A stretch of DNA of 64,000 bases from a virus (Duplodnaviria > Caudoviricetes). Where the stretch lies: positions 96,001-160,000 of the IMG/VR virus record IMGVR_UViG_3300037067_003400; one strand, written 5' to 3'. Below are positions 16,197 to 49,270 of the stretch, in pieces; positions within the stretch are counted from its first letter, which is position 1; every line of letters starts with the position of its first letter. The position numbers and the translations under genes are program-made. The notes below the pieces were generated by a model, which was not told the origin of the DNA, did no database searches, and saw nothing but the letters and a program-made list of their open reading frames with translations.

Positions 16197-16233
16197 AAGG
16201 GTACTATCTTTATGGTAGTACTCTTAATTTTTT
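16197..16233 (+). terminator. intrinsic terminator
   Basis: AAGGGTACTATC...GGTAGTACTCTT stem plus T-run. Confidence 0.6.
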
Positions 16234-16948: not shown

Positions 16949-17917
16949 ATGAAGAAGATTTTTTATGGTTCTAATAAAGAACTTGTTAGGTATATAAGCA
17001 CTAAAGAAATCAATAAAGTAAAAGTTGCCGGGGGTATTTATAGATATATAGATGATGTAGAAGAACTGGAGATGGTTCTTAAGTCTGTTGCTTTATTCTT
17101 TTTTCCATCTTGTCCTACTACTTATATATACACCGGCAAAGATTTTGCTAAGGTAGCTTCTATTGAATGCAATACAGATAATGTCTATGTTGTATTTCCT
17201 GGGAGTTCTGTGCCGCAAGAGTTTGCTAAAAACAAATGGATGCTTGTGTGTTGTGATGTGAGTGACTCTGTACTTGCTGAGTTTATATCTGGAGAATGTG
17301 ATAAGTATATTAAGAAGCTAAAGTTTATTGATGATCCAGTTCCAGTTATAAAAGAACTGCTTGCTACGTACAAAATGGATCCTTGGAAAACAGAAAATGA
17401 ATTCTTTAGATATCTACTTCTTAATACTATAGGAAACGTGGAACAGGAATATAGTTTTGATATTTCTGAGCCTGATAATATAGTTTATATTGTAGTAGAT
17501 GGTATACTTGATAAAGATTTTTCCTGGATAGATTTAACTAAAGATATAACTGTTACAGATGTAATAGGTATTAATAAGTTATTATATATTAAACTTTCTA
17601 TGCTACTACAGATTGAAATGTTAATAGAAACTGGTAAGATAGTAGACTTAGATGCATACTGTTCCATAGGTAAACAAACAAGAACATTTACTATGTTTTC
17701 TAATGATATAAAGGAAACAGTTTTTGGATACATAGGTAGAACTAAATGGTTATATAGTAAGTTCATGCAATACAGTAAGCTGTGGACTATAGATGAGATT
17801 AATGATGTATTGTTAGCTGTTAGTAAGACTAAGATAAACATATTGGAAGAGTACTACTTAAGTTATCCTGCTGGGATTGTATATAATATAATCTTTAGTT
17901 GTTTTGGGAGGTATTAA
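16949..17917 (+). CDS. clamp-loader delta subunit-like protein (HolA-like)
   Basis: Size, position directly before dnaX, weak HolA-like motifs (ENEFFRY, NIVYIVVDGILDKD). Confidence 0.55.
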   Translation: MKKIFYGSNKELVRYISTKEINKVKVAGGIYRYIDDVEELEMVLKSVALFFFPSCPTTYIYTGKDFAKVASIECNTDNVYVVFPGSSVPQEFAKNKWMLVCCDVSDSVLAEFISGECDKYIKKLKFIDDPVPVIKELLATYKMDPWKTENEFFRYLLLNTIGNVEQEYSFDISEPDNIVYIVVDGILDKDFSWIDLTKDITVTDVIGINKLLYIKLSMLLQIEMLIETGKIVDLDAYCSIGKQTRTFTMFSNDIKETVFGYIGRTKWLYSKFMQYSKLWTIDEINDVLLAVSKTKINILEEYYLSYPAGIVYNIIFSCFGRY

Positions 17918-18949
17918 ATGTCTCTTTACAATAAATACAGACCGACTACGTTATCTCAAGTAGTAGGGCAGGAACACATTAAAGCTGTGATAAAAGCTTC
18001 AAGTGTTAATGATGTATTTAATCATGCATATTTATTAATAGGGTCTCGTGGTATAGGTAAGACTTCTATTGCAAGAATAATAGCTAAGCTTGTTAATTGT
18101 TTGTCTCCTAAAGATGGGGAACCTTGTAATAAGTGTGAGAATTGTTTGTTGATTATGTCTGGTAAGACTCCAGATATAATAGAATTTGATGCGGCATCTA
18201 ACAGAGGAGTTAGTGATATAGATGCTATGTTAGATGCTATTAATTATGCACCCGTGTCTTTAAAGAAGACAGTATATATAATAGATGAGATACATCAGTT
18301 ATCTTCTACAGCTAAGGACTCTTTATTAAAGACATTAGAAGAACCTCCTGGTAGTGTTATGTTTATATTAGCTACTACCGAAGGGAAAAGAGTGCCTCCT
18401 ACCATAAGATCAAGGTGTCAATTTCTTGAGTTTCGGAAGGCATCTGTCCCAGAATTAATTAAATTGTTATCAGCTATATGTAAGTTAGAGAAGATAGCTT
18501 GTACAGAAGCAGGGTTATCTACTATTGCTACATATGCTAATGGTTCTTATAGGGATGCGCTTACTATATTAGAAACAGTCTCTGTAGTCGGAGATGTAGA
18601 TGAAGATACTGTATGCAAAGTAACTGGAGTTCCAGAAGAAAGACTCGTTAAGAGTGCTGTGTTAGCTATGTCTAAGAAGGATGTGTCTGATCTTATAAAA
18701 GTAAGTGCTGAAGTTAAGTCTTCTGCTGTAGTAGTAGATAAATTTATAGAAGCATTAGTGCTATATCTATTTGTTATAATAGGTAAGCTAAGTGCTGGGA
18801 ATTCTTCCGACCCGAGATTGGATAAGTTATTGTCTACTGCTTTATATGTAGCAAATGTTAGGAAGGATTTAGATTATAATATAGACTCTCTTGCATTAGA
18901 CATAGTTTTGTTTGGTGCTCATAAGATTATGCAAAGTAGTGGTGAATAG
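17918..18949 (+). CDS. dnaX: clamp-loader ATPase, DNA Pol III gamma-like
   Basis: KYRP..VVGQEH, GSRGIGKTS, PCNKCENC, DEIH, LKTLEEPP, IRSRC. Confidence 0.96.
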   Translation: MSLYNKYRPTTLSQVVGQEHIKAVIKASSVNDVFNHAYLLIGSRGIGKTSIARIIAKLVNCLSPKDGEPCNKCENCLLIMSGKTPDIIEFDAASNRGVSDIDAMLDAINYAPVSLKKTVYIIDEIHQLSSTAKDSLLKTLEEPPGSVMFILATTEGKRVPPTIRSRCQFLEFRKASVPELIKLLSAICKLEKIACTEAGLSTIATYANGSYRDALTILETVSVVGDVDEDTVCKVTGVPEERLVKSAVLAMSKKDVSDLIKVSAEVKSSAVVVDKFIEALVLYLFVIIGKLSAGNSSDPRLDKLLSTALYVANVRKDLDYNIDSLALDIVLFGAHKIMQSSGE

Positions 18950-18950
18950 T

Positions 18951-20063
18951 ATGTTAGCTGAATTTGAGACAACAGTATTTCTTGATGACTTATTAGTGTT
19001 GTCCAGAGTTATAGAAAGTAAATCTGCCCAGCCTATTCTTGGCACTATAGTTTTTAGATTCTTAACTAATGGAAAACTTATTATGACTTCTACTGATGCT
19101 TCTACATATGTTACTCGTGTAATAGATATAGAACCATTGGAAGAAGAATGTGTATTTGCTATAGATGCTACTATACTTAAGCAATCTGTAGCTTCTCTGA
19201 AAAAGGATAAGTTTTGTATAGACTATGTGCCAGGAAAAGGTGAGGCTATTATAAGTGCTGGAGCTTCTAAGATATGGTTACCTATTATAACTGATATGAA
19301 TGTTATGCCAGCTATTAGAAAATGTAAGACAGAGGGAAATGAAGAAGTATCTTTATTGTTTGATGAATTTAAAACTTCTGCTAAGACAGTAGCTATAGCA
19401 TCTGATCCTGCAAGTATTATACCATGTATGACTGGTATAGTGGTAACTGTTCATGATGACACCACAGAATTAATAGGGTTGTCAAATTTTATGCTGGCTA
19501 AAGATACTTTAGAGCCAGTAAGTTATTCTAATGATATAGAGTTTCTTATTAGTCCTAAAGTATTAAAGATATTATATGCTATCAAGAAAGATTGTAAGTA
19601 TATAAACATAAGTATTGGTAAAAGAGACATGCTTATTACTGTGGATCCATATGTTATAGTATCCCGTCGTATGTTAAGTGATATATTAGACTGGTCTCGT
19701 TTCCTAAAAGGTTTATATACTACTAAAGTTAAGGTAGCAAAGAAGATATTGTTAGAGGCTATTAATAGGTCACGAGTTATTGGCTCTTATGCTGATAACT
19801 TTGTTAGATTAGAAATAAAGAAGGATGGTATTATTATTTCTACGGAAGGAAAGGCTGGAAGTTCTGAGGATAAGTTACCTATAGAACTTGAGGGCCCTGA
19901 AGTAGTAGTAGCATTTAATTCTTCTTTAGTATCTAAAGGATTATCTGTATTGAATACAGAGTTTGTATATTTAAACGTAGCTACAAGCAACTCTCCAGTG
20001 ATGGTAGAGTGTGATGATATAAGTAAAGTTCAAGTATGGGGAACCATAACTTTACAAGAATAA
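18951..20063 (+). CDS. dnaN: sliding clamp, DNA Pol III beta-like
   Basis: 370 aa; PIL..I, STD, EAINR and VAFN motifs; follows dnaX. Confidence 0.85.
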   Translation: MLAEFETTVFLDDLLVLSRVIESKSAQPILGTIVFRFLTNGKLIMTSTDASTYVTRVIDIEPLEEECVFAIDATILKQSVASLKKDKFCIDYVPGKGEAIISAGASKIWLPIITDMNVMPAIRKCKTEGNEEVSLLFDEFKTSAKTVAIASDPASIIPCMTGIVVTVHDDTTELIGLSNFMLAKDTLEPVSYSNDIEFLISPKVLKILYAIKKDCKYINISIGKRDMLITVDPYVIVSRRMLSDILDWSRFLKGLYTTKVKVAKKILLEAINRSRVIGSYADNFVRLEIKKDGIIISTEGKAGSSEDKLPIELEGPEVVVAFNSSLVSKGLSVLNTEFVYLNVATSNSPVMVECDDISKVQVWGTITLQE

Positions 20064-20076
20064 TTTGGAGGAATAT

Positions 20077-20724
20077 ATGTTAGATTTAAGTAAACTTTAT
20101 GATTTGCCTATGACGAGTAGATCTATAGAAATGGCTGCTGGATTAGATGCTGCACTTGGTGCAGAGCATTGGTCTACTGAATGCTGGGTAGCTGAAAAGA
20201 GTGTTATAAATGCCAGTATAAGTATCGTTGATGGTGGTTCTACTTGGCTACGTAGAGACTGGGTAGCCGATACTTTCGAGAAAGCATTTGTTAATGCGGC
20301 TCTTATGTTAGGATACGCTAGAAATAGCTTAAATGGTATAAAGAAAGTAGTAGTAGGTGCTACTAATAATAGTATTGGGGAAACAGCTGTTGATGCTGGG
20401 TGTCAGTTTGTTATGGAGTTTGATGATGTTGTAAAGGATGAAGATACATTGCTTCCAGAAGATATAGCAAGTGATGATGATTTTAGTAAAGATGCTGTTG
20501 ATGACTTAGATCCAGTAGCTATGCTTCACTCTCAGCTGGACGAAAAAGATATCCCAGTAGAAGCTGGAATAGAAGCTAAACCTGCTACTGTTGCTACTAT
20601 AGAGCAGGATCCTGAACATCCTATGTGTGTGAGTTGTAATAAGAAAATAACTATTACAAGATTTACTAAACTAACTGAAGCTAACTTGCCTATTACATGT
20701 TTAGCTTGTGAGGATAAAGTGTAA
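20077..20724 (+). CDS. putative Rad52/Sak-like ssDNA-annealing protein with acidic linker and C-terminal Zn finger
   Basis: LDAALGAEHWS and AFVNAALMLG resemble Rad52-family motifs; CVSC..CLAC. Confidence 0.45.
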   Translation: MLDLSKLYDLPMTSRSIEMAAGLDAALGAEHWSTECWVAEKSVINASISIVDGGSTWLRRDWVADTFEKAFVNAALMLGYARNSLNGIKKVVVGATNNSIGETAVDAGCQFVMEFDDVVKDEDTLLPEDIASDDDFSKDAVDDLDPVAMLHSQLDEKDIPVEAGIEAKPATVATIEQDPEHPMCVSCNKKITITRFTKLTEANLPITCLACEDKV

Positions 20725-20918
20725 TGCCAACATATGAATACGTCTGTGACAATGAAGGATGTGATGTTTACCAATTTAGTAAGAGTGTAAAAGTAAAGGA
20801 TTCCAATAATGTAAGTTGTATTAAGTGTGGATGTCCTGCTACTAAGGTTCTTACTAAACATTTTGGTATAGCATTCAAGGGTCCTGGTTTTCATAGTACA
20901 GACTATAGGAGTAAGTAA
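20724..20918 (+). CDS. FmdB-family Zn-ribbon protein
   Basis: MPTYEYVC...CIKCG...FKGPGFHSTDY. Confidence 0.9.
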   Translation: MPTYEYVCDNEGCDVYQFSKSVKVKDSNNVSCIKCGCPATKVLTKHFGIAFKGPGFHSTDYRSK

Positions 20919-21571
20919 TGAGTATACTAATAAGTGTATGTGTAGTAACTACAGATGAACGTGTAAAGAATCTTGATAGGCTAAAGAAAAGCCTTGATGA
21001 TGTATTGTGGTGGCCTGATACACACGAAGTTATAGTTAAGAGCAATGATAGTATAGCCCTTGGTTATAATGAGGCTGCTTCTGAAGCTGATGGACAATAT
21101 TTGTTCTTTGTGCATGATGATGTAGAACTTAGAGGGCATAGACCTCTATTGTTTTCTATGTTAGAACTACTTAAGAAAGAAAAGACTGGGTTAGTAGGTA
21201 TGGCTGGTACCCGTGTGTTCCCTAAGAATGGCGTATGGTGGGAAGATAAGTCTTCCCTATCAGGTGCTGTATATCATACTGCTAATGGTAATACCTGGGA
21301 TACTTCTTTCGGTGTATTTGGTAGGGTAGTCGTATTAGATGGAGTGTTCCTATCTATAGAAAGAAAGAAGTTTGAAGAGATAGGTGGGTTCCCTATTACA
21401 ATGACTGGCTTTGATTTCTATGACCTTGCTATTTGTATGGAAGCAAGGAAAAAAGGTTATGATAATTATACTTTCCCGTTTCCTATATTGCACCACTCTT
21501 TAGGTGATGTTACTAATAGGGAAGGCTGGCATGAAAACAGAACTAAATTCTTGGAGTTATACAATGGCTAA
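20918..21571 (+). CDS. GT-A/GT2-like glycosyltransferase
   Basis: GYNEA, FVHDDV, LDGVFL, FDFYD, HHSLG. Confidence 0.88.
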   Translation: MSILISVCVVTTDERVKNLDRLKKSLDDVLWWPDTHEVIVKSNDSIALGYNEAASEADGQYLFFVHDDVELRGHRPLLFSMLELLKKEKTGLVGMAGTRVFPKNGVWWEDKSSLSGAVYHTANGNTWDTSFGVFGRVVVLDGVFLSIERKKFEEIGGFPITMTGFDFYDLAICMEARKKGYDNYTFPFPILHHSLGDVTNREGWHENRTKFLELYNG

Positions 21572-21830
21572 AGATGCTGAGTATCTCATTTGGAGAGAGG
21601 GCACAAGAGATATTTTATGGACATCTAATCACGCCCTCCTTGTTTTTGCAATACAACATATAGGTAACAAGGAATTTAAGAAGGATTCTTTGGTTACCTA
21701 TACATCTCCGGGTGGTAAGGCTATAGAGTGGCAGATACCACTTAAGATAACTAACCGACCTAAGTTAGATGAAGCTATAAAAATCTTCTATGAAAAGAAA
21801 GGTAAGAAGTCAAGTGGAAAAGCTGATTGA
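21564..21830 (+). CDS. hypothetical protein
   Basis: ORF in the operon; start moved to the ATG at 21564. Confidence 0.6.
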   Translation: MAKDAEYLIWREGTRDILWTSNHALLVFAIQHIGNKEFKKDSLVTYTSPGGKAIEWQIPLKITNRPKLDEAIKIFYEKKGKKSSGKAD

Positions 21831-22087
21831 ATGTTTACAAGCTAAGTTAAAGTTAGCTGATGATGTGATACATTTATATGCTCCAAGAAATGTTAAGATG
21901 AAACTATACAAAGCTTGGAAAGAACTTGATGAGAAATTAGAAGAGGTGCCTATTAGTACTGTTCCCTATCCTGTTAGGACAGGAGCAAGTTTTACTGGTG
22001 GCGTTAATGAACTTAAGAAAACAATGGAAACATTTGCAAGAGTTGAAAAAGATAGAAATAGATTTGGGAGTCTAAAGAAAAAGCACA

Positions 22088-22675
22088 ATGGATGAGTGGG
22101 TCAAACAAGAAAAGAAGTTGAAGAAAATACACAGGGGTTTTAGAACTCCTGGCTCTGGTAACAAAGGTATTAAGGCTGATGTTATAGGAGATGTGTTTGT
22201 AATAGAAGCTAAGTTCTCTGGAGTAACAGACTCTAAAGGTAGAAAATATATGGATGTGTCAAGAGACTGGCTACTCAAACTTTCTAATGAACTTAGAGGA
22301 ACTAAGATTCCTTTGCTTAACTTAAACATAGGGAATCTAACTACTCTTTCTATAATTCCTGCTGATCAGTATGATACACGTGTAATGGGAACCATAGATT
22401 TTAATGATAAGAAACAAGTTAGAATCTATGCTGAAGATACTGTTGAGCATTATACTGTTCTTATACCACATAAGAAGTTTCCAGAGTGGATTATACTATC
22501 GGACGATGATATAGAAGAGATACTTGATGAAGTTCGTGGTCCAGAAATAGAGATTAAAGTTCCTAAGATTTCTAAAGAAGAAAAGATACGACAGAAAGCT
22601 GATGTCAAAGCTTTCAGGAAAGCAGAGTATAGAAGATACAAACGATTTAAGAAGGGATTACCTATAGATGACTGA
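22088..22675 (+). CDS. Hjc-like Holliday junction resolvase / PD-(D/E)xK nuclease
   Basis: QE...RTPGSGN..KADV...IEAK. Confidence 0.75.
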   Translation: MDEWVKQEKKLKKIHRGFRTPGSGNKGIKADVIGDVFVIEAKFSGVTDSKGRKYMDVSRDWLLKLSNELRGTKIPLLNLNIGNLTTLSIIPADQYDTRVMGTIDFNDKKQVRIYAEDTVEHYTVLIPHKKFPEWIILSDDDIEEILDEVRGPEIEIKVPKISKEEKIRQKADVKAFRKAEYRRYKRFKKGLPIDD

Positions 22676-23690
22676 CTTTATGAATCTATTTGAGAAACAT
22701 TTAGGACATGGCATGAAATGTGGCGACAATGTTATATTTAGATGTTTTAGATGTGACAATAGTGGCACTGGACATTTATATGTTAATGCAAATGATGGCA
22801 GATATTATTGTTTTAAATGTGGAAATGACTCAGATGGTCAGGGTAAGGGTAATCCCCGTTCGTTTGCTATATTAATGGGAGAAGATCCAACTCAATATGA
22901 GAATGCTAATGCGTATAGGAATGTTCCTAATAGACATGACTTTGCTGATTATGATTTGATTAGTAGTATCTATACATATGTGTTTAGTAAGCTTAATCTT
23001 TCTGATGAGCATAGAGATTATCTTATAAGTAGAAGTATTGATTTAAGATTTGGGTTTAAGAGTTCTGATAAAGCATTTGATGTGCTAAGAGATAGGTATG
23101 ATGACTCTACTATAGTTAGTTCTGGATTAGCTAAGTATTCTCCTGCTGGGTATGTTATTCCGGCGGTTGCAATAGAAGCTAATAGAATCTTAATACCCTA
23201 CACTCAAGAAGATAGAGTGGTGTATTTTAGGAGTAGGGCATGTGGTGACTCTACTCTTAAGTATGCCAGCCCTATTGGTGTAAGTGCTAATAGATTTGTG
23301 TGGTATGATACTATATCTAATAAGCTTCTTGTTATCACGGAGGGAGAGCTTAAGGGTATGGCATCTCTCTCTGCTGGTGTTAGTACTATAGCTACTCCTG
23401 GTATGAGGTCTTCTCATGAAACAGTAGCTAAGCTATGTGTTAAGAACTCAGTAGAAAATATCATACTGTGTTTTGATAACCAAATTGAAAACTTTAGAGA
23501 TGTTTGTTCTGCAAAAACTAAGTTAGTAAGTTATATATCTAAATTGTATACTCCAAGAATATATGATTGTGTGCTTCCTTTTCTTCCTATGGTAGAAGAG
23601 GGTAAGAAAATAGATATAGACTCTTTTATAAATGTTTTAGGTAAAGATAAATATATAAAAACTTTATCTAAGGCAAGGAGGATTCTTTAA
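22668..23690 (+). CDS. DnaG-type DNA primase
   Basis: N-terminal Zn finger CFRC/CFKC; TOPRIM ITEGELK, CFDN, DID. Confidence 0.88.
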   Translation: MTDFMNLFEKHLGHGMKCGDNVIFRCFRCDNSGTGHLYVNANDGRYYCFKCGNDSDGQGKGNPRSFAILMGEDPTQYENANAYRNVPNRHDFADYDLISSIYTYVFSKLNLSDEHRDYLISRSIDLRFGFKSSDKAFDVLRDRYDDSTIVSSGLAKYSPAGYVIPAVAIEANRILIPYTQEDRVVYFRSRACGDSTLKYASPIGVSANRFVWYDTISNKLLVITEGELKGMASLSAGVSTIATPGMRSSHETVAKLCVKNSVENIILCFDNQIENFRDVCSAKTKLVSYISKLYTPRIYDCVLPFLPMVEEGKKIDIDSFINVLGKDKYIKTLSKARRIL

Positions 23691-25513
23691 TGGGTGCTGA
23701 TGGTTCTGTAGTTTTGGATCCTGCACAGTTGAAAGTAGTAGAAGATACAGAAGGTCCTTGTATTATATATGCTGGGCCTGGTAGTGGTAAGAGTAGAAGT
23801 TTAGTTCATAGAGTAGCACACCTTGCGAAAAAGGGTGTAGCTACTCATAATATTTTAGTAGTAACTTTTACTAATAAAGCGGTAGATGTATTAGTAGAGC
23901 GGTTAGATAAGTTAATTGGTAGTGATCATAAGGTTCATGTATCTACTTTTCATTCTTTATCAGCAGTAATACTTAGAAGGTATTGGAATAATACTTTTTC
24001 TATTTACGATGATGACGATAAGAAAAAACTTATTACATCTATAATAAAAGATAAGCAATATGATAAAGATATAACATCAATTGTTATGGATAACTTAGGA
24101 GAAGCCGCTAAACGAAGTACAAGCTTTGGTAATATAGATAAGACTGGAGATTCTATTGTTGATAATGTTATTAGTATATACTATTCTGAATTAATAAAGG
24201 CTAATGCTTTAGACTTTGATTCTATAGTTACTAAATGCGTTGATATATTAAAAGAAAATGATAGTGTACGTAGTTTAGTTCAGAAGACTTACAAGTATAT
24301 CTTGGTAGATGAAGCTCATGATATGAATACTGCTCAAGGTGAGCTTGTTAAGCTTATGGTTGGTGAAGCTCAGAATGTTTGTCTTGTAGCTGATGTAGAT
24401 CAGTCTATCTATGGGTTCAGGGGTGCTGATTTCGAAGTAGTTTGGGAACTTGCAGATTATTTTAAAGATACTAAGGTCTATAAATTAGAAAGAAATTATA
24501 GGTCTACACGTGTAATAGTAAATTCTGCAAGAAAAGTTATAACTAACAATGAGAATAGAGTACCTATGAACTTTGAATCTATGAGAGATTCTGGTACTAC
24601 TATTAGGGTTGTAGATTTAATGTCTTCTGAATCAGAAGCTACCTGGGTAGCAGATGATATACAATCTAAAATAGAGGCGGGGAAATATTCCCCAGAAGAC
24701 ATAGCTATATTGTATAGAGTAACAGCTATGTCTGCTTCATTTGAGTCTAAGTTAATGTATAGGGGGATTGCTTATAAGGTAATAGGTAGTCGTACTTTTT
24801 TTGCGAAGGCAGAGATAAAAGATATTCTTGCTTATCTTAGGGTTATTCATAATAAGCGTGATAATGTAGCAGTGCTAAGAATTATAAACTTACCTAAGCG
24901 TGGGATAGGTGCTGCTATGGTAAAGGATATAGTTAATAAGAGTAATATACTTGATATGTGCTATATAGATACTATAAGAGCTATGTGTAAGCAAAAGAGT
25001 AATCCCAAGTTAGAAAGTTTCCTATCTTTTATTGATAGTATATCTAAAAGTGGAAAGCTTACTACTATGGTTCAGGATATATCAAGAGTAGTAGCAGATT
25101 TTTATAGTACTGATACTAACTTAGATGAGCGTATAAATAATATAGAGCAACTGTATGGGTTAGTCTCTATGTATGATGGAGTAGATGCTCTTTCTAATTT
25201 CATAGAAGACATGAGCCTTTCCATTTATGACGAAGAGGGAGCTGAAGACTTAGGTGTATACCTTATGACTATGCATCAGTGTAAAGGTTTGGAGTTTCCT
25301 TTAGTATATGTAGTAGGAGCAGAGCAAAATGTTATTCCTTATTATAAAGCTTCTACTAAGGAACAGGTAGAAGAAGAACGTAGATTGTTCTATGTATCTA
25401 TGACAAGAGCTATGGATGAATTAGTTATAACTCATGCCAGAGCCAGAGCTTTATATGGAAAAGTATCTTATAATAGAACGTCTATGTTTGTGGAGGAGCT
25501 TAGACGTGGGTAG
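23690..25513 (+). CDS. uvrD: UvrD/PcrA SF1 helicase
   Basis: AGPGSGKS, TFTNKA, DEAHD, QSIYGFRGA, NYRST, KGLEFP, EERRLFYVSMTRA. Confidence 0.96.
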   Translation: MGADGSVVLDPAQLKVVEDTEGPCIIYAGPGSGKSRSLVHRVAHLAKKGVATHNILVVTFTNKAVDVLVERLDKLIGSDHKVHVSTFHSLSAVILRRYWNNTFSIYDDDDKKKLITSIIKDKQYDKDITSIVMDNLGEAAKRSTSFGNIDKTGDSIVDNVISIYYSELIKANALDFDSIVTKCVDILKENDSVRSLVQKTYKYILVDEAHDMNTAQGELVKLMVGEAQNVCLVADVDQSIYGFRGADFEVVWELADYFKDTKVYKLERNYRSTRVIVNSARKVITNNENRVPMNFESMRDSGTTIRVVDLMSSESEATWVADDIQSKIEAGKYSPEDIAILYRVTAMSASFESKLMYRGIAYKVIGSRTFFAKAEIKDILAYLRVIHNKRDNVAVLRIINLPKRGIGAAMVKDIVNKSNILDMCYIDTIRAMCKQKSNPKLESFLSFIDSISKSGKLTTMVQDISRVVADFYSTDTNLDERINNIEQLYGLVSMYDGVDALSNFIEDMSLSIYDEEGAEDLGVYLMTMHQCKGLEFPLVYVVGAEQNVIPYYKASTKEQVEEERRLFYVSMTRAMDELVITHARARALYGKVSYNRTSMFVEELRRG

Positions 25514-25835
25514 TGAAGATGGAGGTAGGCTGTAATGAAGAAGGGTGCATGGAAAGTAAGAGTAGTTCCTGTTGATGAACTTACATCCTTAGTCAATGTT
25601 GATGTAGCTTTAAAAGAAATAGATATTAATGCTGGTATAAATGAAGATAAAATAAAAGAAGAGTCTTTTAAGTTGTTAAAGTATATAACAACCAGAGATG
25701 AGTTCGCAAGTTTGATAGAAAGATGTTTTGGTCTTAATATTATTGTAGATTATGAGAATATGTTTTATGTGTGTTATTATATAGATTCTGGTGATGTTGT
25801 TGTCAAGTATAATTCGAAAGCGATGGTAAAAATTA

Positions 25836-27602
25836 ATGGAAATAAAACTAATAAATAGCAACGTAGAGGGTATAACTAAACATTTGAATTCTGATTGCTT
25901 AGCTATTGACTTTGAAGCTTCTGGGTTAGATCCATACACTACAGTGCCCTGGTTATTTTCTGTTAAGCCATCTAATCATAATGTTACATATGTAATAGAC
26001 GTACAGAAATGCAGTTTAGAACCTATTAGAAATGTATTAGAGTCTTCATTATTGATAGGTGCTAATATATCTTATGACTTAAAGCTTCTTAGGCATATGG
26101 GCTTTAGACCAAGAAGAGTTTATTGTGTTGTTGTAGCTGAACGTGTGTTATCTGCTGGTATAAGAGTAGGAGAAAATGATTTAGCTTCTATTATAAAGAG
26201 AAGGATTGGTGTATCGTTAGATAAAGAAGTACGAAGTTCTTTTATTATGTTATATGAAGATGCTAAGAAAGTGGATAAGAATATAAAATGGGCTGAAGCA
26301 CAGGTTATGTATGCTGCTAAAGATGTAGAGTATTTGCATCCTGTATATATAAGCCAGTTAGAAGAAGCACATAGAGCTGATGTTGAGTATGTTATAAAGT
26401 GTGAGTCTAATCTTGTTCCAGTAGTAGCTGATATGGAGTATGTAGGTATAGGTTTTGATAAAGAGAAGTGGCTTAAGCTTGATGAGGAGCATAGACTACA
26501 AAAATCTATACTTTATGGTGAAATTTGTGACGAATTAGTTATACCTAAAACAAGGATGACTTTGTTCCCAGAGACAACGGGAAGTATCTATGATTTAAAT
26601 ATAGATAGCCCTATCTTAGTTAAGAAGCTATTGAGCAGTTATGGTATAGATGTTCCAGATACTAAAGAAGAAACTCTTAAAGATATTGATGTTCCTATAT
26701 GTAAGAAACTTATTGAGTATAGAAAATTAGAGAAGAGTATAACATCTTATGGTAGGAATTGGCTGTCTTATATTAACCCAGTAACTGGTAGAATACACAG
26801 TTCCTTCAACCAAGTTCGCTGTGATACTGGAAGATTTGGGAGTAGTGAGCCTAACTTACAAAATATCCCAGCTACTATAGAGTATAGGTCTTGTTTCATA
26901 GCACCTAAGGGTAGAAAGCTAATCACTGCAGACTATGCTGGTATAGAACTTAGAATAATAGCAGAGTTTAGTAGTGATGAGACTATGATAAAAGCATTCA
27001 ATGGTACTAATGATGTTCACTCTGAAACAGCTGCTCTTATATTTGGGCTTCCAGTAGAGGAGTGTGGTAAGGGTACTAAGTATAGAGATATTGGTAAGAC
27101 TTTAAACTATTCTTTGCTATACGGACAGGGAGATGATAAGTTAGCTATTAAGTTAGGTGTGTCATTAGAAGAAGCTGCTAAGATTAGAGCTGCTTATAGT
27201 GAGAGGTTTGCTAATATAATGTCTTGGTTAGAAAAAGCTGGTGAAGAAGCAGTTAAAGAAGGTTATTGTGCTACTCCTTTAGGTAGAAAGCGATGGTTTA
27301 CAAAGAACACTTCTCTATATGAGATGAAAGCCTCTGGTAGGAACACACCTATTCAGGGAACTTCTGCCGACATGATTAAGATAGCTCAAATTATTTTAAA
27401 TAAAAAGTTGCTGATTGCAGATACTGATGCCTTCATGGTTGATGTTATACATGATGAGCTATTAGTAGAAGCTGATGAAAATATAGTAGATGATGTGTCG
27501 AAGGTTATAGAAGAAAGTATGGTAGAAGCTGGTAGTATTTTCTTGAAGAGGGTACCTATTAAAGTATCCCTTAGTGTTGGTGATTGCTGGAGTAAGGATT
27601 AA
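25836..27602 (+). CDS. polA: family A DNA polymerase (3'-5' exonuclease plus polymerase, no 5'-3' exonuclease)
   Basis: DFE, YAAKD, TGRFGSSEPNLQNIP, DYAGIELR, KTLNYSLLYG, HDEL. Confidence 0.97.
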   Translation: MEIKLINSNVEGITKHLNSDCLAIDFEASGLDPYTTVPWLFSVKPSNHNVTYVIDVQKCSLEPIRNVLESSLLIGANISYDLKLLRHMGFRPRRVYCVVVAERVLSAGIRVGENDLASIIKRRIGVSLDKEVRSSFIMLYEDAKKVDKNIKWAEAQVMYAAKDVEYLHPVYISQLEEAHRADVEYVIKCESNLVPVVADMEYVGIGFDKEKWLKLDEEHRLQKSILYGEICDELVIPKTRMTLFPETTGSIYDLNIDSPILVKKLLSSYGIDVPDTKEETLKDIDVPICKKLIEYRKLEKSITSYGRNWLSYINPVTGRIHSSFNQVRCDTGRFGSSEPNLQNIPATIEYRSCFIAPKGRKLITADYAGIELRIIAEFSSDETMIKAFNGTNDVHSETAALIFGLPVEECGKGTKYRDIGKTLNYSLLYGQGDDKLAIKLGVSLEEAAKIRAAYSERFANIMSWLEKAGEEAVKEGYCATPLGRKRWFTKNTSLYEMKASGRNTPIQGTSADMIKIAQIILNKKLLIADTDAFMVDVIHDELLVEADENIVDDVSKVIEESMVEAGSIFLKRVPIKVSLSVGDCWSKD

Positions 27603-29120: not shown

Positions 29121-29356
29121 TTATATCCAAGCTGAGATAGGTAATCTTTATTTTTTAGTTGAGAATTAAGTTTCCTATCTTTAGCTTTCTTTTTAATGAG
29201 GTTGAATAAACACTGTATATCACAGAAGAGTATTCCTTTTTTTGAGGTTTTAGTAACAATTACCATAGAGGTATCGGGGTTAGGAAACTTTCCACAGTTG
29301 GCGCAGGTAGTGGCAGTATCGTAGATAGCTGTGATTTTAATAACATCATCTTGCAT
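29117..29356 (-). CDS. Zn-finger (TRASH-like) protein
   Basis: CANCGK...FCDIQC. Confidence 0.65.
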   Translation of the reverse strand: MQDDVIKITAIYDTATTCANCGKFPNPDTSMVIVTKTSKKGILFCDIQCLFNLIKKKAKDRKLNSQLKNKDYLSQLGYN

Positions 29357-30051
29357 TATCTTAGTCTCCTTATGTCATCTCTAAAGAATTTAGCTAACAC
29401 TTTCTTAGCAGCACTTAGGTGATTCCGTAGTGTCCTCTCCGTCCCTATGTGTAAAACTTCAGCTGCTACTGTTTCTGTAAAGCCATCAGCATATATCATC
29501 TTGATGATAGCTCTCTGTAAGGGAGTAAGTCTATCCCAGCCTTCTCCTGTTGTGATACCATTTACCCATGACATGTTTATTTCTACCTCTTCGTCCTGGG
29601 CAGACTTGTACGTATCAATATCACGAAAGATCCCTGCTTGTTTAGTCTCTACTGTTTTACAAACCAATGGGTCTTTCACTAAATCTTTTAGTTGTCTCTT
29701 GAAGACATACTTGAAATTGCTTGCTATAGCTGTATACTTTCTTGCTGTTGTAAGTAAAGCTAATACAGCTTCTTGGTTTATATCTTCTGGGTCATAGGCT
29801 TTAAGTAGTATTACAAGTTCTTCTACTGTAGTTTGTAAGTCGTCACCTCCTAACATTGAAAGAAAGTGCCTTATGTCTTTGTCGTGCTTATCCCAGATGC
29901 CAAGTGTGCATAGTCTTACATACTTATCTGTTATAGGGGCAAAAGCTTCTATTAGTTCCTGGGATGCTATTGCGTCCCCTTCTCTATAGCGTGTAACTAT
30001 GTCGTTTAGCTCTTCTGTTGTGTGGTAAGTGTAAACTTTATTTTTATTCAT
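29356..30051 (-). CDS. phage sigma70-family RNA polymerase sigma factor
   Basis: GDAIASQELI (region 1.2/2), EDINQEAVLALL (region 2), LTPLQRAII..TETVAAEVLHI (region 4 HTH). Confidence 0.8.
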   Translation of the reverse strand: MNKNKVYTYHTTEELNDIVTRYREGDAIASQELIEAFAPITDKYVRLCTLGIWDKHDKDIRHFLSMLGGDDLQTTVEELVILLKAYDPEDINQEAVLALLTTARKYTAIASNFKYVFKRQLKDLVKDPLVCKTVETKQAGIFRDIDTYKSAQDEEVEINMSWVNGITTGEGWDRLTPLQRAIIKMIYADGFTETVAAEVLHIGTERTLRNHLSAAKKVLAKFFRDDIRRLR

Positions 30052-46876: not shown

Positions 46877-49270
46877 CTATTTTTTAACAGGTTTTTTTAT
46901 GTTCTTAGAGTATATTAAATCTCTCCAGAAGTTTTGCCATGTTGGGTCAGCCTCTTCTACTAAACAAAATGCAGGGTAGTGTTCAAAGAATATGATAGAG
47001 TTAAACTCTGATGTTTTATTTTTTACTATATCTAATTCTATTATAGGAAACTTATCTTTTACTACAGTCCCATCTTCATTGTTTATAATAACTTCACCAA
47101 AAACTTCTGCATTCTCTCTGTTAATCTTGTAGTCAGAATAAAGAGCTCCCATTATCTTAGCATCATATCCAGCTGCTACTGAGCCTTTAACTGATTCTTG
47201 GTCTAACCCCCTACGTAAAGATCCCTTTGGTGTATGGGATGTTACTATAATACTACACTTTTCTGATTCTGCTAACGTTACTAATTCATTAGAGGTGTAT
47301 GCTTCAATCTGTATCTTATCATTATATCCTCCCCTAAAGTCATCAGCTACTATATTATGAAACCCATCTATTGTTACTACAAGCTTTTTATCCCCATACA
47401 TATCTCTCTGTGCTTGCACTATAGTTTTTATCTGGGATAGATTACGTGCGTTCTTGTTGAAATCTGTGCACTCTACTATAGTAAGTCTCGGAGCAATAGC
47501 ATCAAACCAATAAGTTTCAGCATCAAAGACTCTTTTGTTTTCTTCTTCAGTTCTTGTGAATGCATATCTTACTTTGTTAATCTTTACTTTAGATAGTCTT
47601 GCTATAGAGTTTCTAAATCTTGTAGCAAAATCATCATCCAAAGATACATCTAATACTTGTACTTCTGGTGTATGTTCTATTAAATGTGTGTAAGCATTTA
47701 ATTGAATAGTACTATTATGCACTATAAAACCATTGGCTATAAAGTTATGCGTTTTTGGTACCATTATATCATATGTCTTTTTTGGACCTACTGACTCTAT
47801 ACTTACTATTGTGTCCCATACTATGTCGGAGTTTCCTAAATTTATTAAGTAGTCATCTTTTATATATTTCCCTAAATCCACAGCGATGCTTCTATGCAAT
47901 GCTCTATTGTACCCACGCACAGAGTCTATACTACGTTTAGATATTTTTGTGTTTCGTAATTTTTGGTTTATGTATTCTCTAATTTCTTTTGGTATGTTTT
48001 GTAGTGCACTATTCCTTGATTTTCTTAATATAGGTGTTTCTATTATTTGTTTTAATTTTTCTTCTTTTTCAGCAATACCTATTTGTTCTATAAAGTTCAC
48101 AATATTTATTCTGTCTAAAATATCTAACTGGAAAGCATAACATATTTTTCCATTACATTTTATTTTCCTTGGTTTTTTTGATGATTGTATACCAAATTTT
48201 GATAATAGAAATTGTAGCTGGTCTACTAATTTTTCAGACTTTGATGTATATGTAATACCACAATCACCTCTTTTATTTATGTATGCTGAGCCATCACAAG
48301 CATATAAATACTTTATAAATGTGGCTACTTTGTCTTTTGGTGCATTCATTACCTGTTCTGGTATATCTTTATTACCAGATACCTTTGAGTATACATTATA
48401 CTTTTTAAGGAATCTTACTAATTCACATGTAGTATCTTGCTCTGACATTGGTATATAGTTTAATTCTTTTGCAACGTCTATTATTTTTTGCCGTGTAAGT
48501 TCATTACACCTTTTTCCAGTTAAAGCATTTAGTACACTAACAGTACAAAGTCCTAATTTTTTAGCTATATCAGCATATGTTACTGCTTTTACGTTTTTTG
48601 GCTTACTAAATACGTAAGAGCTTGCTTTGTTGTTTTTCTTTGTGTACACTGCTATATGGTGTACTCCACACTCTATAGTTATTGCTTGTTGCAATTGTAA
48701 AACTAAATTTGTATTTGCTGTAGTAAAAGATGGGTTTACATCTATTACACTTCCATCTCCGATTAGTAGCCCTAATATTATACAAGCATTATCTGTTATT
48801 TCTTCTGTACCAAACAAAGGTATTTCTCTTGCTAATGCTATTCTATCCTTTATTTGTAAATCTTTTAATGCTGTCCAGCCACTTAGTTTTAAAAATGGGT
48901 GGTTGTCAGAGGTAAGTATACTTCTACCTGTAGCCGTTGTTACTTTATAGCACTCTTTTATACCACTATATGTACTTTTAGAAGCAGGAATTAGCTTTAG
49001 CTTATAATTTTCTGCTAAAGATAATACATTTGTTTCTAAAAAGTTTTCTATTGGTACTAACTTTCCGTTAAGGTCTGGTATTACTGTACCTTCTGCTAAG
49101 CATTTACCAATGTTAGGTGGAGCTGGTAAGAAGAATACTCCATAGTCATATCCTTCAGTTGCTGCATTCATTGTCTCCCAACCAAAGTCTAAGTATCTTT
49201 CTTTTCTTTCTGCATCTTGCTCTCTTACTTCTTGAGCTTTCTTAAATATGCTTGGAAATTCTATAGTCAT
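46877..49270 (-). CDS. DnaB-like SF4 replicative helicase containing an intein
   Basis: Walker A APPNIGK|ST split by the intein; IDGFH, TSH, YDAK, KNK motifs. Confidence 0.88.
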   Translation of the reverse strand: MTIEFPSIFKKAQEVREQDAERKERYLDFGWETMNAATEGYDYGVFFLPAPPNIGKCLAEGTVIPDLNGKLVPIENFLETNVLSLAENYKLKLIPASKSTYSGIKECYKVTTATGRSILTSDNHPFLKLSGWTALKDLQIKDRIALAREIPLFGTEEITDNACIILGLLIGDGSVIDVNPSFTTANTNLVLQLQQAITIECGVHHIAVYTKKNNKASSYVFSKPKNVKAVTYADIAKKLGLCTVSVLNALTGKRCNELTRQKIIDVAKELNYIPMSEQDTTCELVRFLKKYNVYSKVSGNKDIPEQVMNAPKDKVATFIKYLYACDGSAYINKRGDCGITYTSKSEKLVDQLQFLLSKFGIQSSKKPRKIKCNGKICYAFQLDILDRINIVNFIEQIGIAEKEEKLKQIIETPILRKSRNSALQNIPKEIREYINQKLRNTKISKRSIDSVRGYNRALHRSIAVDLGKYIKDDYLINLGNSDIVWDTIVSIESVGPKKTYDIMVPKTHNFIANGFIVHNSTIQLNAYTHLIEHTPEVQVLDVSLDDDFATRFRNSIARLSKVKINKVRYAFTRTEEENKRVFDAETYWFDAIAPRLTIVECTDFNKNARNLSQIKTIVQAQRDMYGDKKLVVTIDGFHNIVADDFRGGYNDKIQIEAYTSNELVTLAESEKCSIIVTSHTPKGSLRRGLDQESVKGSVAAGYDAKIMGALYSDYKINRENAEVFGEVIINNEDGTVVKDKFPIIELDIVKNKTSEFNSIIFFEHYPAFCLVEEADPTWQNFWRDLIYSKNIKKPVKK
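47714..49102 (-). mobile_element. intein (463 aa) with LAGLIDADG endonuclease and embedded LacI-type HTH
   Basis: Begins CLAEGT, TSDNHPF block B, LGLLIGDG and LYACDG, ends HNFIANGFIVHN followed by Ser. Confidence 0.95.

Follow-up and report, generated by a model that had tools for sequence, protein, structure and literature searches.

A jumbo phage replication module in which a family A DNA polymerase with a candidate clamp-docking peptide is encoded beside a bacterial-type sliding clamp and clamp loader

Gene Content of the Replication Module

The DNA analyzed here (the window, 64,000 nucleotides) comprises bases 96001-160000 of a single virus record, IMGVR_UViG_3300037067_003400 (Duplodnaviria; Caudoviricetes), which is 210,951 bp long with a CheckV completeness of 98%. 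Positions 16949-27602 of the window hold the replication module of a jumbo phage, with co-directional genes for a family A DNA polymerase (PolA-1), a divergent beta-type sliding clamp, a DnaX-like clamp-loader ATPase and an orphan protein, P0003, that may be a further loader subunit. We describe these components and weigh the reading in which PolA-1 acts as a replicase tethered to the phage’s own clamp. An earlier reading made from the sequence only had named the genes of this array; Pfam and PHROG scans, together with the translations, placed all of them where it had them, on the plus strand. Coordinates are those of the window unless stated otherwise, and the features on which the argument depends are as follows.

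16949..17917, plus strand: P0003, an orphan protein of 322 amino acids (aa), candidate delta-like (HolA-type) subunit; no Pfam or PHROG match
17918..18949, plus strand: DnaX-like clamp-loader ATPase, 343 aa, gamma length (PF13177, E 3e-40; AAA; DNAX_ATPase_lid; phrog_5846, clamp loader)
18951..20063, plus strand: beta-type three-domain clamp (P0126), 370 aa, very divergent (PF00712, PF02768; match to 1vpk)
22668..23690, plus strand: Toprim/DUF3854 primase (PF12965; phrog_47, DNA primase, E 3.9e-23)
25836..27602, plus strand: PolA-1 (P0001), family A polymerase with 3'-5' exonuclease, 588 aa (PF00476, E 1.7e-85; PF01612)
26538..26594, plus strand: thumb-loop insertion VIPKT-RMTLF-PETTGSIY, PolA-1 residues 235-253, with a clamp-binding-type motif
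Candidate clamp-binding peptide of PolA-1: VIPKTRMTLFPETT

The ATG of dnaX directly abuts the stop codon of the P0003 gene and is preceded by GGGAGG, while only 1 nt separates dnaX from dnaN. A hairpin with a 12-bp stem and a T-rich tail lies at 16197-16225, in the gap directly upstream of the array, and is possibly a terminator marking the start of the transcription unit. We found no intergenic terminator-like sites on the plus strand within the array, and it is plausible, judging from this arrangement, that the genes form one operon. The window has a GC content of about 34% and carries a long co-directional gene block on its plus strand. A megablast search with the module returned no nucleotide match among 50,697 phage records on deposit, and the closest PolA of a deposited phage is less than 30% identical to PolA-1.

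PolA-1 and Its Thumb-Loop Motif

In translation, PolA-1 has intact Exo I-III and polymerase motifs A, B and C, with Tyr at the aromatic position of motif B, and its best match among solved structures is Klenow (E 1.6e-56). Its best homolog overall, P0006 (42% identity), occupies the syntenic place on a 216,913-bp metagenomic contig, hereafter the relative phage. The sequence-only reading had drawn attention to a pentapeptide, RMTLF, encoded at 26553-26567 just before an NIDSP motif. The translation bears this out, with RMTLF at residues 240-244 and NIDSP at residues 255-259.

We aligned PolA-1 with 82 homologs of 550-700 aa that have both exonuclease and polymerase domains. Across the columns of RMTLF, these relatives have Q in 63 cases, L or M in 75 and F in 74, followed by G in 63, so that F244 of PolA-1 sits in a nearly invariant column. 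The combination Q..[LM]F falls exactly at this site in 58 of the 82 relatives and occurs elsewhere once in 48,165 residues. Bacterial Pol I proteins do not have this loop (ISGEE-FNINSP). Peptides that bind the beta clamp follow the consensus QL[SD]LF or QxxLF, and the Q-x-x-[LM]-F of the clade is identical to it. The alignment also indicates that RMTLF is no chance pentapeptide but a degenerate form of the clade’s motif Q-x-x-[LM]-F-G, which is specific to this position. When T7 gp5 is aligned, its long insertion falls in exactly the loop that carries the motif in PolA-1, directly before FNPSS. An incomplete literature search found no published description of a thumb-loop motif in this phage clade.

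One clade member, P0077 (QTTLFG), is encoded on a contig of 204 kb; a DnaX-like gene lies 293 bp upstream of it, and an open reading frame (ORF) of 93 aa separates the two. Another, P0022 (QQMSLFGG; 586 aa, L136:1859-3619), lies between genes for NAD kinase, rhomboid and planctomycete-type PSCyt/DUF1501 proteins, a context that looks like a bacterial chromosome, not a phage. The PolA of phage RSL1 (L115:607-3648) has AKSLFGG at the same thumb site. In phage Ma-LMM01, PolA is split into two ORFs (L117:1408-2691 and L117:326-1288), the first of which ends in ...EEDRLFEDN, and the thumb site reads QVVDW.

We also scanned the whole phage proteome for clamp-type peptides. No other convincing client emerged, and no other replication protein carries [RKQ]x[STD][LM]F.

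Modelled Docking of PolA-1 on the Clamp

The complex of full-length PolA-1 with the full-length clamp, the latter modelled as a monomer, was predicted from two custom alignments. That of the clamp (A2) held the phage clamp, the clamp of the relative phage and 12 bacterial DnaN proteins; that of PolA-1 (A3) had 58 rows. The interaction prediction score from aligned errors (ipSAE) was 0.66 in two of three runs and 0.68 in the other, and the highest value among three controls was 0.00. Of solved complexes, 58 of 80 reach the calibration mark for this score, as do 2 of 110 mismatched pairs; these counts are rough here, with custom alignments in use. The predicted local distance difference test (pLDDT) of the partners was at least 85, and the runs shared at least 93% of their contacts.

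On the PolA-1 side, the predicted interface consists of residues 235-244, 246-248 and 252-253, that is, of the thumb loop. On the clamp side it includes residues 157, 177-182, 246, 251, 282, 284, 321, 323, 347, 349, 362 and 364-370. In alignment A2, clamp residues 177-182 align with the bacterial TDGxRL segment and residues 362-370 with the C-terminal tail, the two elements that we take to line the client-binding cleft of E. coli beta. The sequence-only reading had proposed RMTLF as the link to the clamp, and in these models the thumb-loop peptide does dock where a client would, occupying the cleft between clamp domains II and III beside the C-terminal tail. What the docking shows, at the level of a model, is that the loop resembles an accessible clamp client; it speaks for likeness, not for binding.

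The Clamp and the Loader ATPase

The clamp consists of three tandem domains in about 370 aa, as in the beta clamp (DnaN). Its outer Pfam domains score above the cut-off (PF00712, 33.1 bits; PF02768, 39.8 bits) and the central PF02767 below it (20.6 bits). The protein aligns over its full length with the beta clamp of Thermotoga maritima (1vpk; E 1.8e-20, residues 7-358), while a search of 5.8e9 proteins found no close relatives. The client cleft of bacterial DnaN is lined by a C-terminal tail of the form (I/V)MP(M/V). The phage clamp does not have this IMP(M/V) tail and ends in VQVWGTITLQE (ACVLFAKIGE in the relative phage).

DnaX has the features expected of a bacterial loader ATPase: a AAA+ module with Walker A (GSRGIGKT) and Walker B (DEIH), an SRC arginine finger, a four-Cys Zn module, the PF22608 lid and the collar. 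By tblastn it matches DnaX from many bacterial phyla at 40-50% identity, over query residues 1-339 only. The protein stops after the collar domain at residue 343; it thus comprises domains I-III and no tau domains IV-V, which in bacterial tau bind DnaB and the alpha subunit of Pol III. IMG/VR loci retrieved through DnaX (L013-L017) were set aside as comparators, as DnaX alone is common to them and this phage.

P0003 as a Candidate Delta Subunit

The sequence-only reading had called P0003 holA-like. The ORF, contiguous with dnaX, is there; support from databases is not, with Pfam and PHROG both returning no match. P0003 is an orphan on a very large scale: in 5.8e9 clustered proteins and 1.84e9 representatives (the latter searched exhaustively with HMMER), its sole homolog is P0125 of the relative phage, which is 24% identical over the whole length.

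Comparisons that reach beyond ordinary sequence searches point to the delta subunit. The nearest ESM Atlas clusters of both P0003 and P0125 are the delta families PF06144/PF21694, with language-model feature scores of 0.92-0.94. The nearest Atlas structures are again delta families, with a template modelling (TM) score of 0.57-0.60 by target for P0003 and 0.53 by query for P0125, and other AAA+ loader subunits rank lower among the neighbors. An hhalign comparison of P0003 with 12 bacterial HolA proteins gave 190 collinear columns (P 0.0066) at a probability of only 5.7%. The N-termini of P0003 (MKKIFYGSNKEL) and of its relative (MNKLFYGSDRTL) resemble the HolA starts MLFFLYGADDY and MIYLIYGEERY. 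Furthermore, an ALF/VFL element lies ahead of a beta-strand, at the place taken by SLF in HolA proteins; in E. coli delta, the element at this position is the clamp-opening contact.

On the strength of the language-model and structure neighbors, the weak profile-profile match and the position of its gene, we regard P0003 as quite probably a delta-like subunit. The loader would then be a minimal assembly of two subunit types, gamma and delta, in which host delta-prime could take part. By analogy with T4 gp44/62, its simplest composition would be four copies of DnaX with one delta-like subunit.

Polymerase and Loader Genes of the Whole Genome

The sequence-only reading had noted neither DnaE/PolC nor delta-prime in the window, which holds and extends to the whole 98%-complete record. 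A full-genome scan for a family C polymerase and holB, set beforehand as a test of the idea, was negative. Across the 210,951 bp there was no match to DnaE/PolC (PF07733, DNA_pol3_alpha profile), to family B polymerases (PF00136) or to delta (PF06144). Nor is there a second AAA+ or delta-prime gene in the record, where PF13177 and PF00004 each have a single match, both of them DnaX. Chi/psi, tau domains, delta-prime and Pol III alpha are all missing from the genome.

The genome does encode a second intact family A polymerase, PolA-2 (P0002; 694 aa), outside the window at genome positions 190330-192414 (L003:1495-3579, minus strand). It has the exonuclease and polymerase motifs and Phe at the aromatic position of motif B, and about 55 residues are inserted in its fingers. 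At the site of the thumb motif its loop reads LLDFLG, a related sequence in which the order of L and F is swapped. PolA-2 is flanked by giant ORFs (968, 1943 and 1949 aa) in a baseplate/virion-structural block, and it may be a late or virion-associated DNA polymerase. The adjacent 1949-aa ORF (L011:12480-18329, minus strand) was considered as a polymerase and rejected, its PolB-exonuclease match lying below the cut-off (E 0.0076, 16 bits).

The Relative Phage and Neighboring Genes

The replication module of the relative phage runs from P0125 through SSB, thioredoxin, ThyA, dUTPase, DnaX and a divergent clamp of 347 aa and, after further genes, through GT2_5, primase, UvrD and MT-A70 to PolA. 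Four genes thus separate P0125 from dnaX (L019:6001-8686). Both jumbo phages have their own divergent clamps without the IMP(M/V) tail, and both carry degenerate motifs in PolA (RMTLF and EYSLF). The joint occurrence of a degenerate peptide and a lost bacterial clamp tail suggests, from the sequences of these two phages, a co-evolved private clamp-peptide pair that would be insulated from the clamp clients of the host.

The remaining features of the module and its surroundings are as follows.

20918..21571, plus strand: GT2_5 glycosyltransferase (PF13712, E 4.6e-26)
22088..22675, plus strand: Holliday-junction-resolvase-like protein (phrog_2002, E 1.8e-10)
23690..25513, plus strand: UvrD-type superfamily 1 (SF1) helicase (PF00580, E 2.7e-59; PF13361, E 1.5e-66)
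46877..49270, minus strand: DnaB-like replicative helicase with a LAGLIDADG intein inside (PF14890, PF14528; exteins match phrog_243 and phrog_19)

Besides UvrD and the resolvase-like protein, the module includes a uracil-DNA glycosylase (UDG)-family protein and a PD-(D/E)xK nuclease. The ORF that follows the clamp (20065-20724) has no similarity to the ORF in the same place of the relative phage. The GT2_5 glycosyltransferase is common to both modules, in the same place and with 45% identity (L018:4764-5408 in the relative phage). A large sugar-biosynthesis operon lies near the GT2_5 gene, a hint that the template PolA-1 must copy may be glycosylated DNA. The DnaB-like helicase at 46877-49270 is one to which Pfam DnaB_C is blind across the intein, while DnaB-like PHROG families match its C-extein. 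A phage thioredoxin inside the PolA replication module of the relative phage is worth noting given T7.

A Probable Clamp-Tethered Family A Replicase and Its Alternatives

We think it probable, if well short of certain, that this phage uses a replicase built on a family A polymerase, instead of family C or B, with PolA-1 tethered to the phage’s own clamp. DnaX and the delta-like P0003 would open the beta-type ring and load it onto the primed sites that the Toprim primase provides. PolA-1 would hold the ring via the VIPKT-RMTLF peptide in the loop between thumb helices H and H1, which is predicted to insert in the hydrophobic cleft of clamp domains II/III next to the C-terminal tail. The ring would act as a tether giving PolA-1 the processivity to copy 211 kb, and we infer that this is where its processivity comes from. 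PolA-1, and not PolA-2, is likely to be the main clamp client, given the conserved replication module to which it belongs, its LF peptide and the T7-gp5-like Tyr at motif B. The sequence-only reading had proposed that PolA is made processive by its own clamp and a gamma plus delta loader. The link between PolA and the clamp has gained from the motif, the site of its loop and the modelled docking; the composition proposed for the loader has not gained in the same way.

Several points weigh against this reading. RMTLF keeps LF and has R in place of the consensus Gln, and the relative phage reads EYSLF at this site; the conserved LF-G could be an intramolecular structural element. The ipSAE may reflect the prediction model’s memory of the many solved complexes of beta with peptides. 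P0003 has no match in Pfam, PHROGs or PDB sequences, with PF06144/PF21694 failing to appear even at E 10, and a two-sequence P0003/P0125 profile found no match in 25 bacterial genomes. Its hhalign probability is low, as given above, and its AlphaFold2 models are unusable (pLDDT 31.7 alone, 31.2 with one ortholog). PolA-2, the second intact PolA, could also use the clamp, and host delta-prime, host clamp or host Pol III may contribute. To our knowledge, phage genomes have prompted proposals of a clamp-dependent family A replicase since 2011, and none has ever been reconstituted.

In a rival reading, the clamp and its loader serve mainly other proteins (PolA-2, host Pol III, or enzymes of repair and recombination in the module), with PolA-1 being intrinsically processive or a repair enzyme and its LF loop a structural feature of the thumb. 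Clamps are general tool-belts (PMC9690074), the module holds UvrD, resolvase-like, UDG-family and PD-(D/E)xK nuclease proteins, a second PolA is at hand, and family A polymerases such as that of T5 are processive without a clamp (PMC3201878). Nevertheless, PolA-2 sits among virion genes outside the replication module and does not have the LF order of the motif, and PolA-1 is the one phage replication protein with a [RKQ]x[STD][LM]F peptide. The clamp tail has diverged from the bacterial IMPM used by host clients. The motif itself is position-specific and fits the clamp-binding consensus in 58 of the 82 relatives, and the docking model passes its controls. We therefore consider this reading unlikely. 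We give still less credence to the clamp being chiefly a DNA-tracking activator of late transcription, with polymerase tethering secondary, even though there are precedents in T4 gp45 with gp33/gp55 and in host beta with MuC of phage Mu (PMC12867686). A sigma-70 region-4-like protein is indeed encoded directly after the module (29356-30051, minus strand) and has a 54% identical counterpart in the relative phage. The sole QxxIF peptide of the protein (QAGIF), however, is deleted there, on which ground we rejected the protein as a clamp client, and the proteome-wide scan found no transcription protein with a conserved clamp motif. A role in transcription would, in any case, be compatible with polymerase tethering.

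The loader leaves more room for doubt than the polymerase does. Phage DnaX, with or without P0003, might recruit delta-prime or delta of the host into a hybrid loader, or P0003 might not be a loader subunit. Delta-prime is present in all bacterial loaders studied, and DnaX, at 40-50% identity to its bacterial counterparts, may have kept its fit to host subunits. No sequence match of P0003 to HolA is significant, and the P0003 ortholog lies four genes from dnaX in the relative phage. Kazlauskas and Venclovas raised the use of host subunits as an alternative (PMC3201878). Against a hybrid stand the apparent translational coupling of P0003 with dnaX in this phage and the delta families as nearest Atlas neighbors of both orthologs. 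The loaders of T4 and archaea, moreover, are 4+1 assemblies without an equivalent of delta-prime. On balance we hold a hybrid loader to be a minority possibility, though one with appreciably more to recommend it than the two alternatives concerning the clamp’s clients.

Implications and Comparison with Known Systems

All cellular replicases of which we are aware pair a clamp with a polymerase of family C, B or D. The locus offers a compact and fully specified set, four genes and a mapped peptide, for testing a clamp-dependent family A replicase, and it could show whether delta-prime is dispensable for a bacterial-type clamp loader. From the presence of the motif across the family, dependence on a beta clamp may be common among Pol I-type enzymes of phages. 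Such dependence is relevant to replication conflicts between phage and host and to the engineering of processive Pol I-type enzymes. A broader proposal, to which we would give somewhat less than even weight, is that the thumb Q-x-x-[LM]-F-G is a genuine clamp-docking element of a very large PolA clade found in phages, prophages and some chromosomes, served in this phage by DnaX and a single delta-like subunit without delta-prime. If this is true, clamp-dependent PolA replication would be widespread; phages without a clamp of their own would take over host beta, private clamp-peptide pairs would have evolved in jumbo phages like the present one, and a T4-like 4+1 loader architecture would have been made from bacterial parts.

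The closest precedents are the phages Ma-LMM01 and RSL1, which encode PolA together with polIII-beta and polIII-gamma and for which the clamp was suggested to serve PolA (Kazlauskas and Venclovas, 2011; PMC3201878). The same study posed the question of whether host subunits complete the loader or a taxon-specific fifth one does, and it noted that E. coli Pol I is stimulated by beta. The genome studied here has the same PolA, beta and gamma combination. Like those phages it exceeds 150 kb, has family A as its only polymerase family, a bacterial-type clamp and a single gamma-like ATPase, and raises the same question about the fifth loader subunit; RSL1 even shares the thumb site, as AKSLFGG. On the other hand, there is no detectable close kinship with them, the clamp and P0003 are orphans here, and it is here that we find a candidate delta-like fifth subunit, a predicted docking peptide and a second PolA. 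The phage is thus a further case of the predicted PolA, beta and gamma replisome, one in which the docking peptide is mapped and the fifth loader subunit has a candidate.

A clamp-binding peptide in a family A polymerase also has a recent bacterial counterpart. A 2026 survey described QxxLF in actinobacterial PolA2, which docks on beta in AlphaFold models, and presented it as the first bacterial polymerase of family A in which a clamp-binding motif had been identified, while reporting no such motif for the phage-related PolA3 group (PMC12926913). As with PolA2/APEX, the model of PolA-1 places a short hydrophobic peptide, carried by an exposed loop, into the cleft between domains II and III of a beta-type clamp. 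The motif of PolA2 lies in a vestigial exonuclease domain, whereas that of PolA-1 is in the thumb H-H1 loop with R for Q, and the clamp here is phage-encoded with a changed C-terminal tail.

In location, there is a parallel in T7 gp5, whose insertion forms the thioredoxin-binding domain at the tip of the thumb (PMC10201439). Host thioredoxin bound at this loop makes the T7 enzyme processive, the part that the clamp would play for PolA-1. An accessory protein is bound there, and predicted to be bound in PolA-1, at an insertion in the same thumb loop, before FNxSS, and both polymerases have Tyr at the motif-B aromatic position. T7, however, has a thioredoxin-binding insertion of about 70 residues, which PolA-1 does not have; its 19-residue loop carries a clamp-type peptide for a ring that needs a loader.

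For that loader, T4 gp44/gp62 is an analogue, in that here too one ATPase species is probably combined with one divergent, taxon-specific subunit encoded adjacent to it. The T4 proteins are of RFC/PCNA type, with gp45 a trimer of two-domain subunits, whereas the phage described here has a bacterial DnaX and a three-domain beta clamp. With the bacterial gamma3-delta-delta' complex it shares DnaX domains I-III, with intact ATPase, SRC and Zn motifs, and probably a delta-like partner; unlike the bacterial DnaX complex, it would operate from a genome that encodes no tau domains, delta-prime, chi/psi or Pol III alpha.

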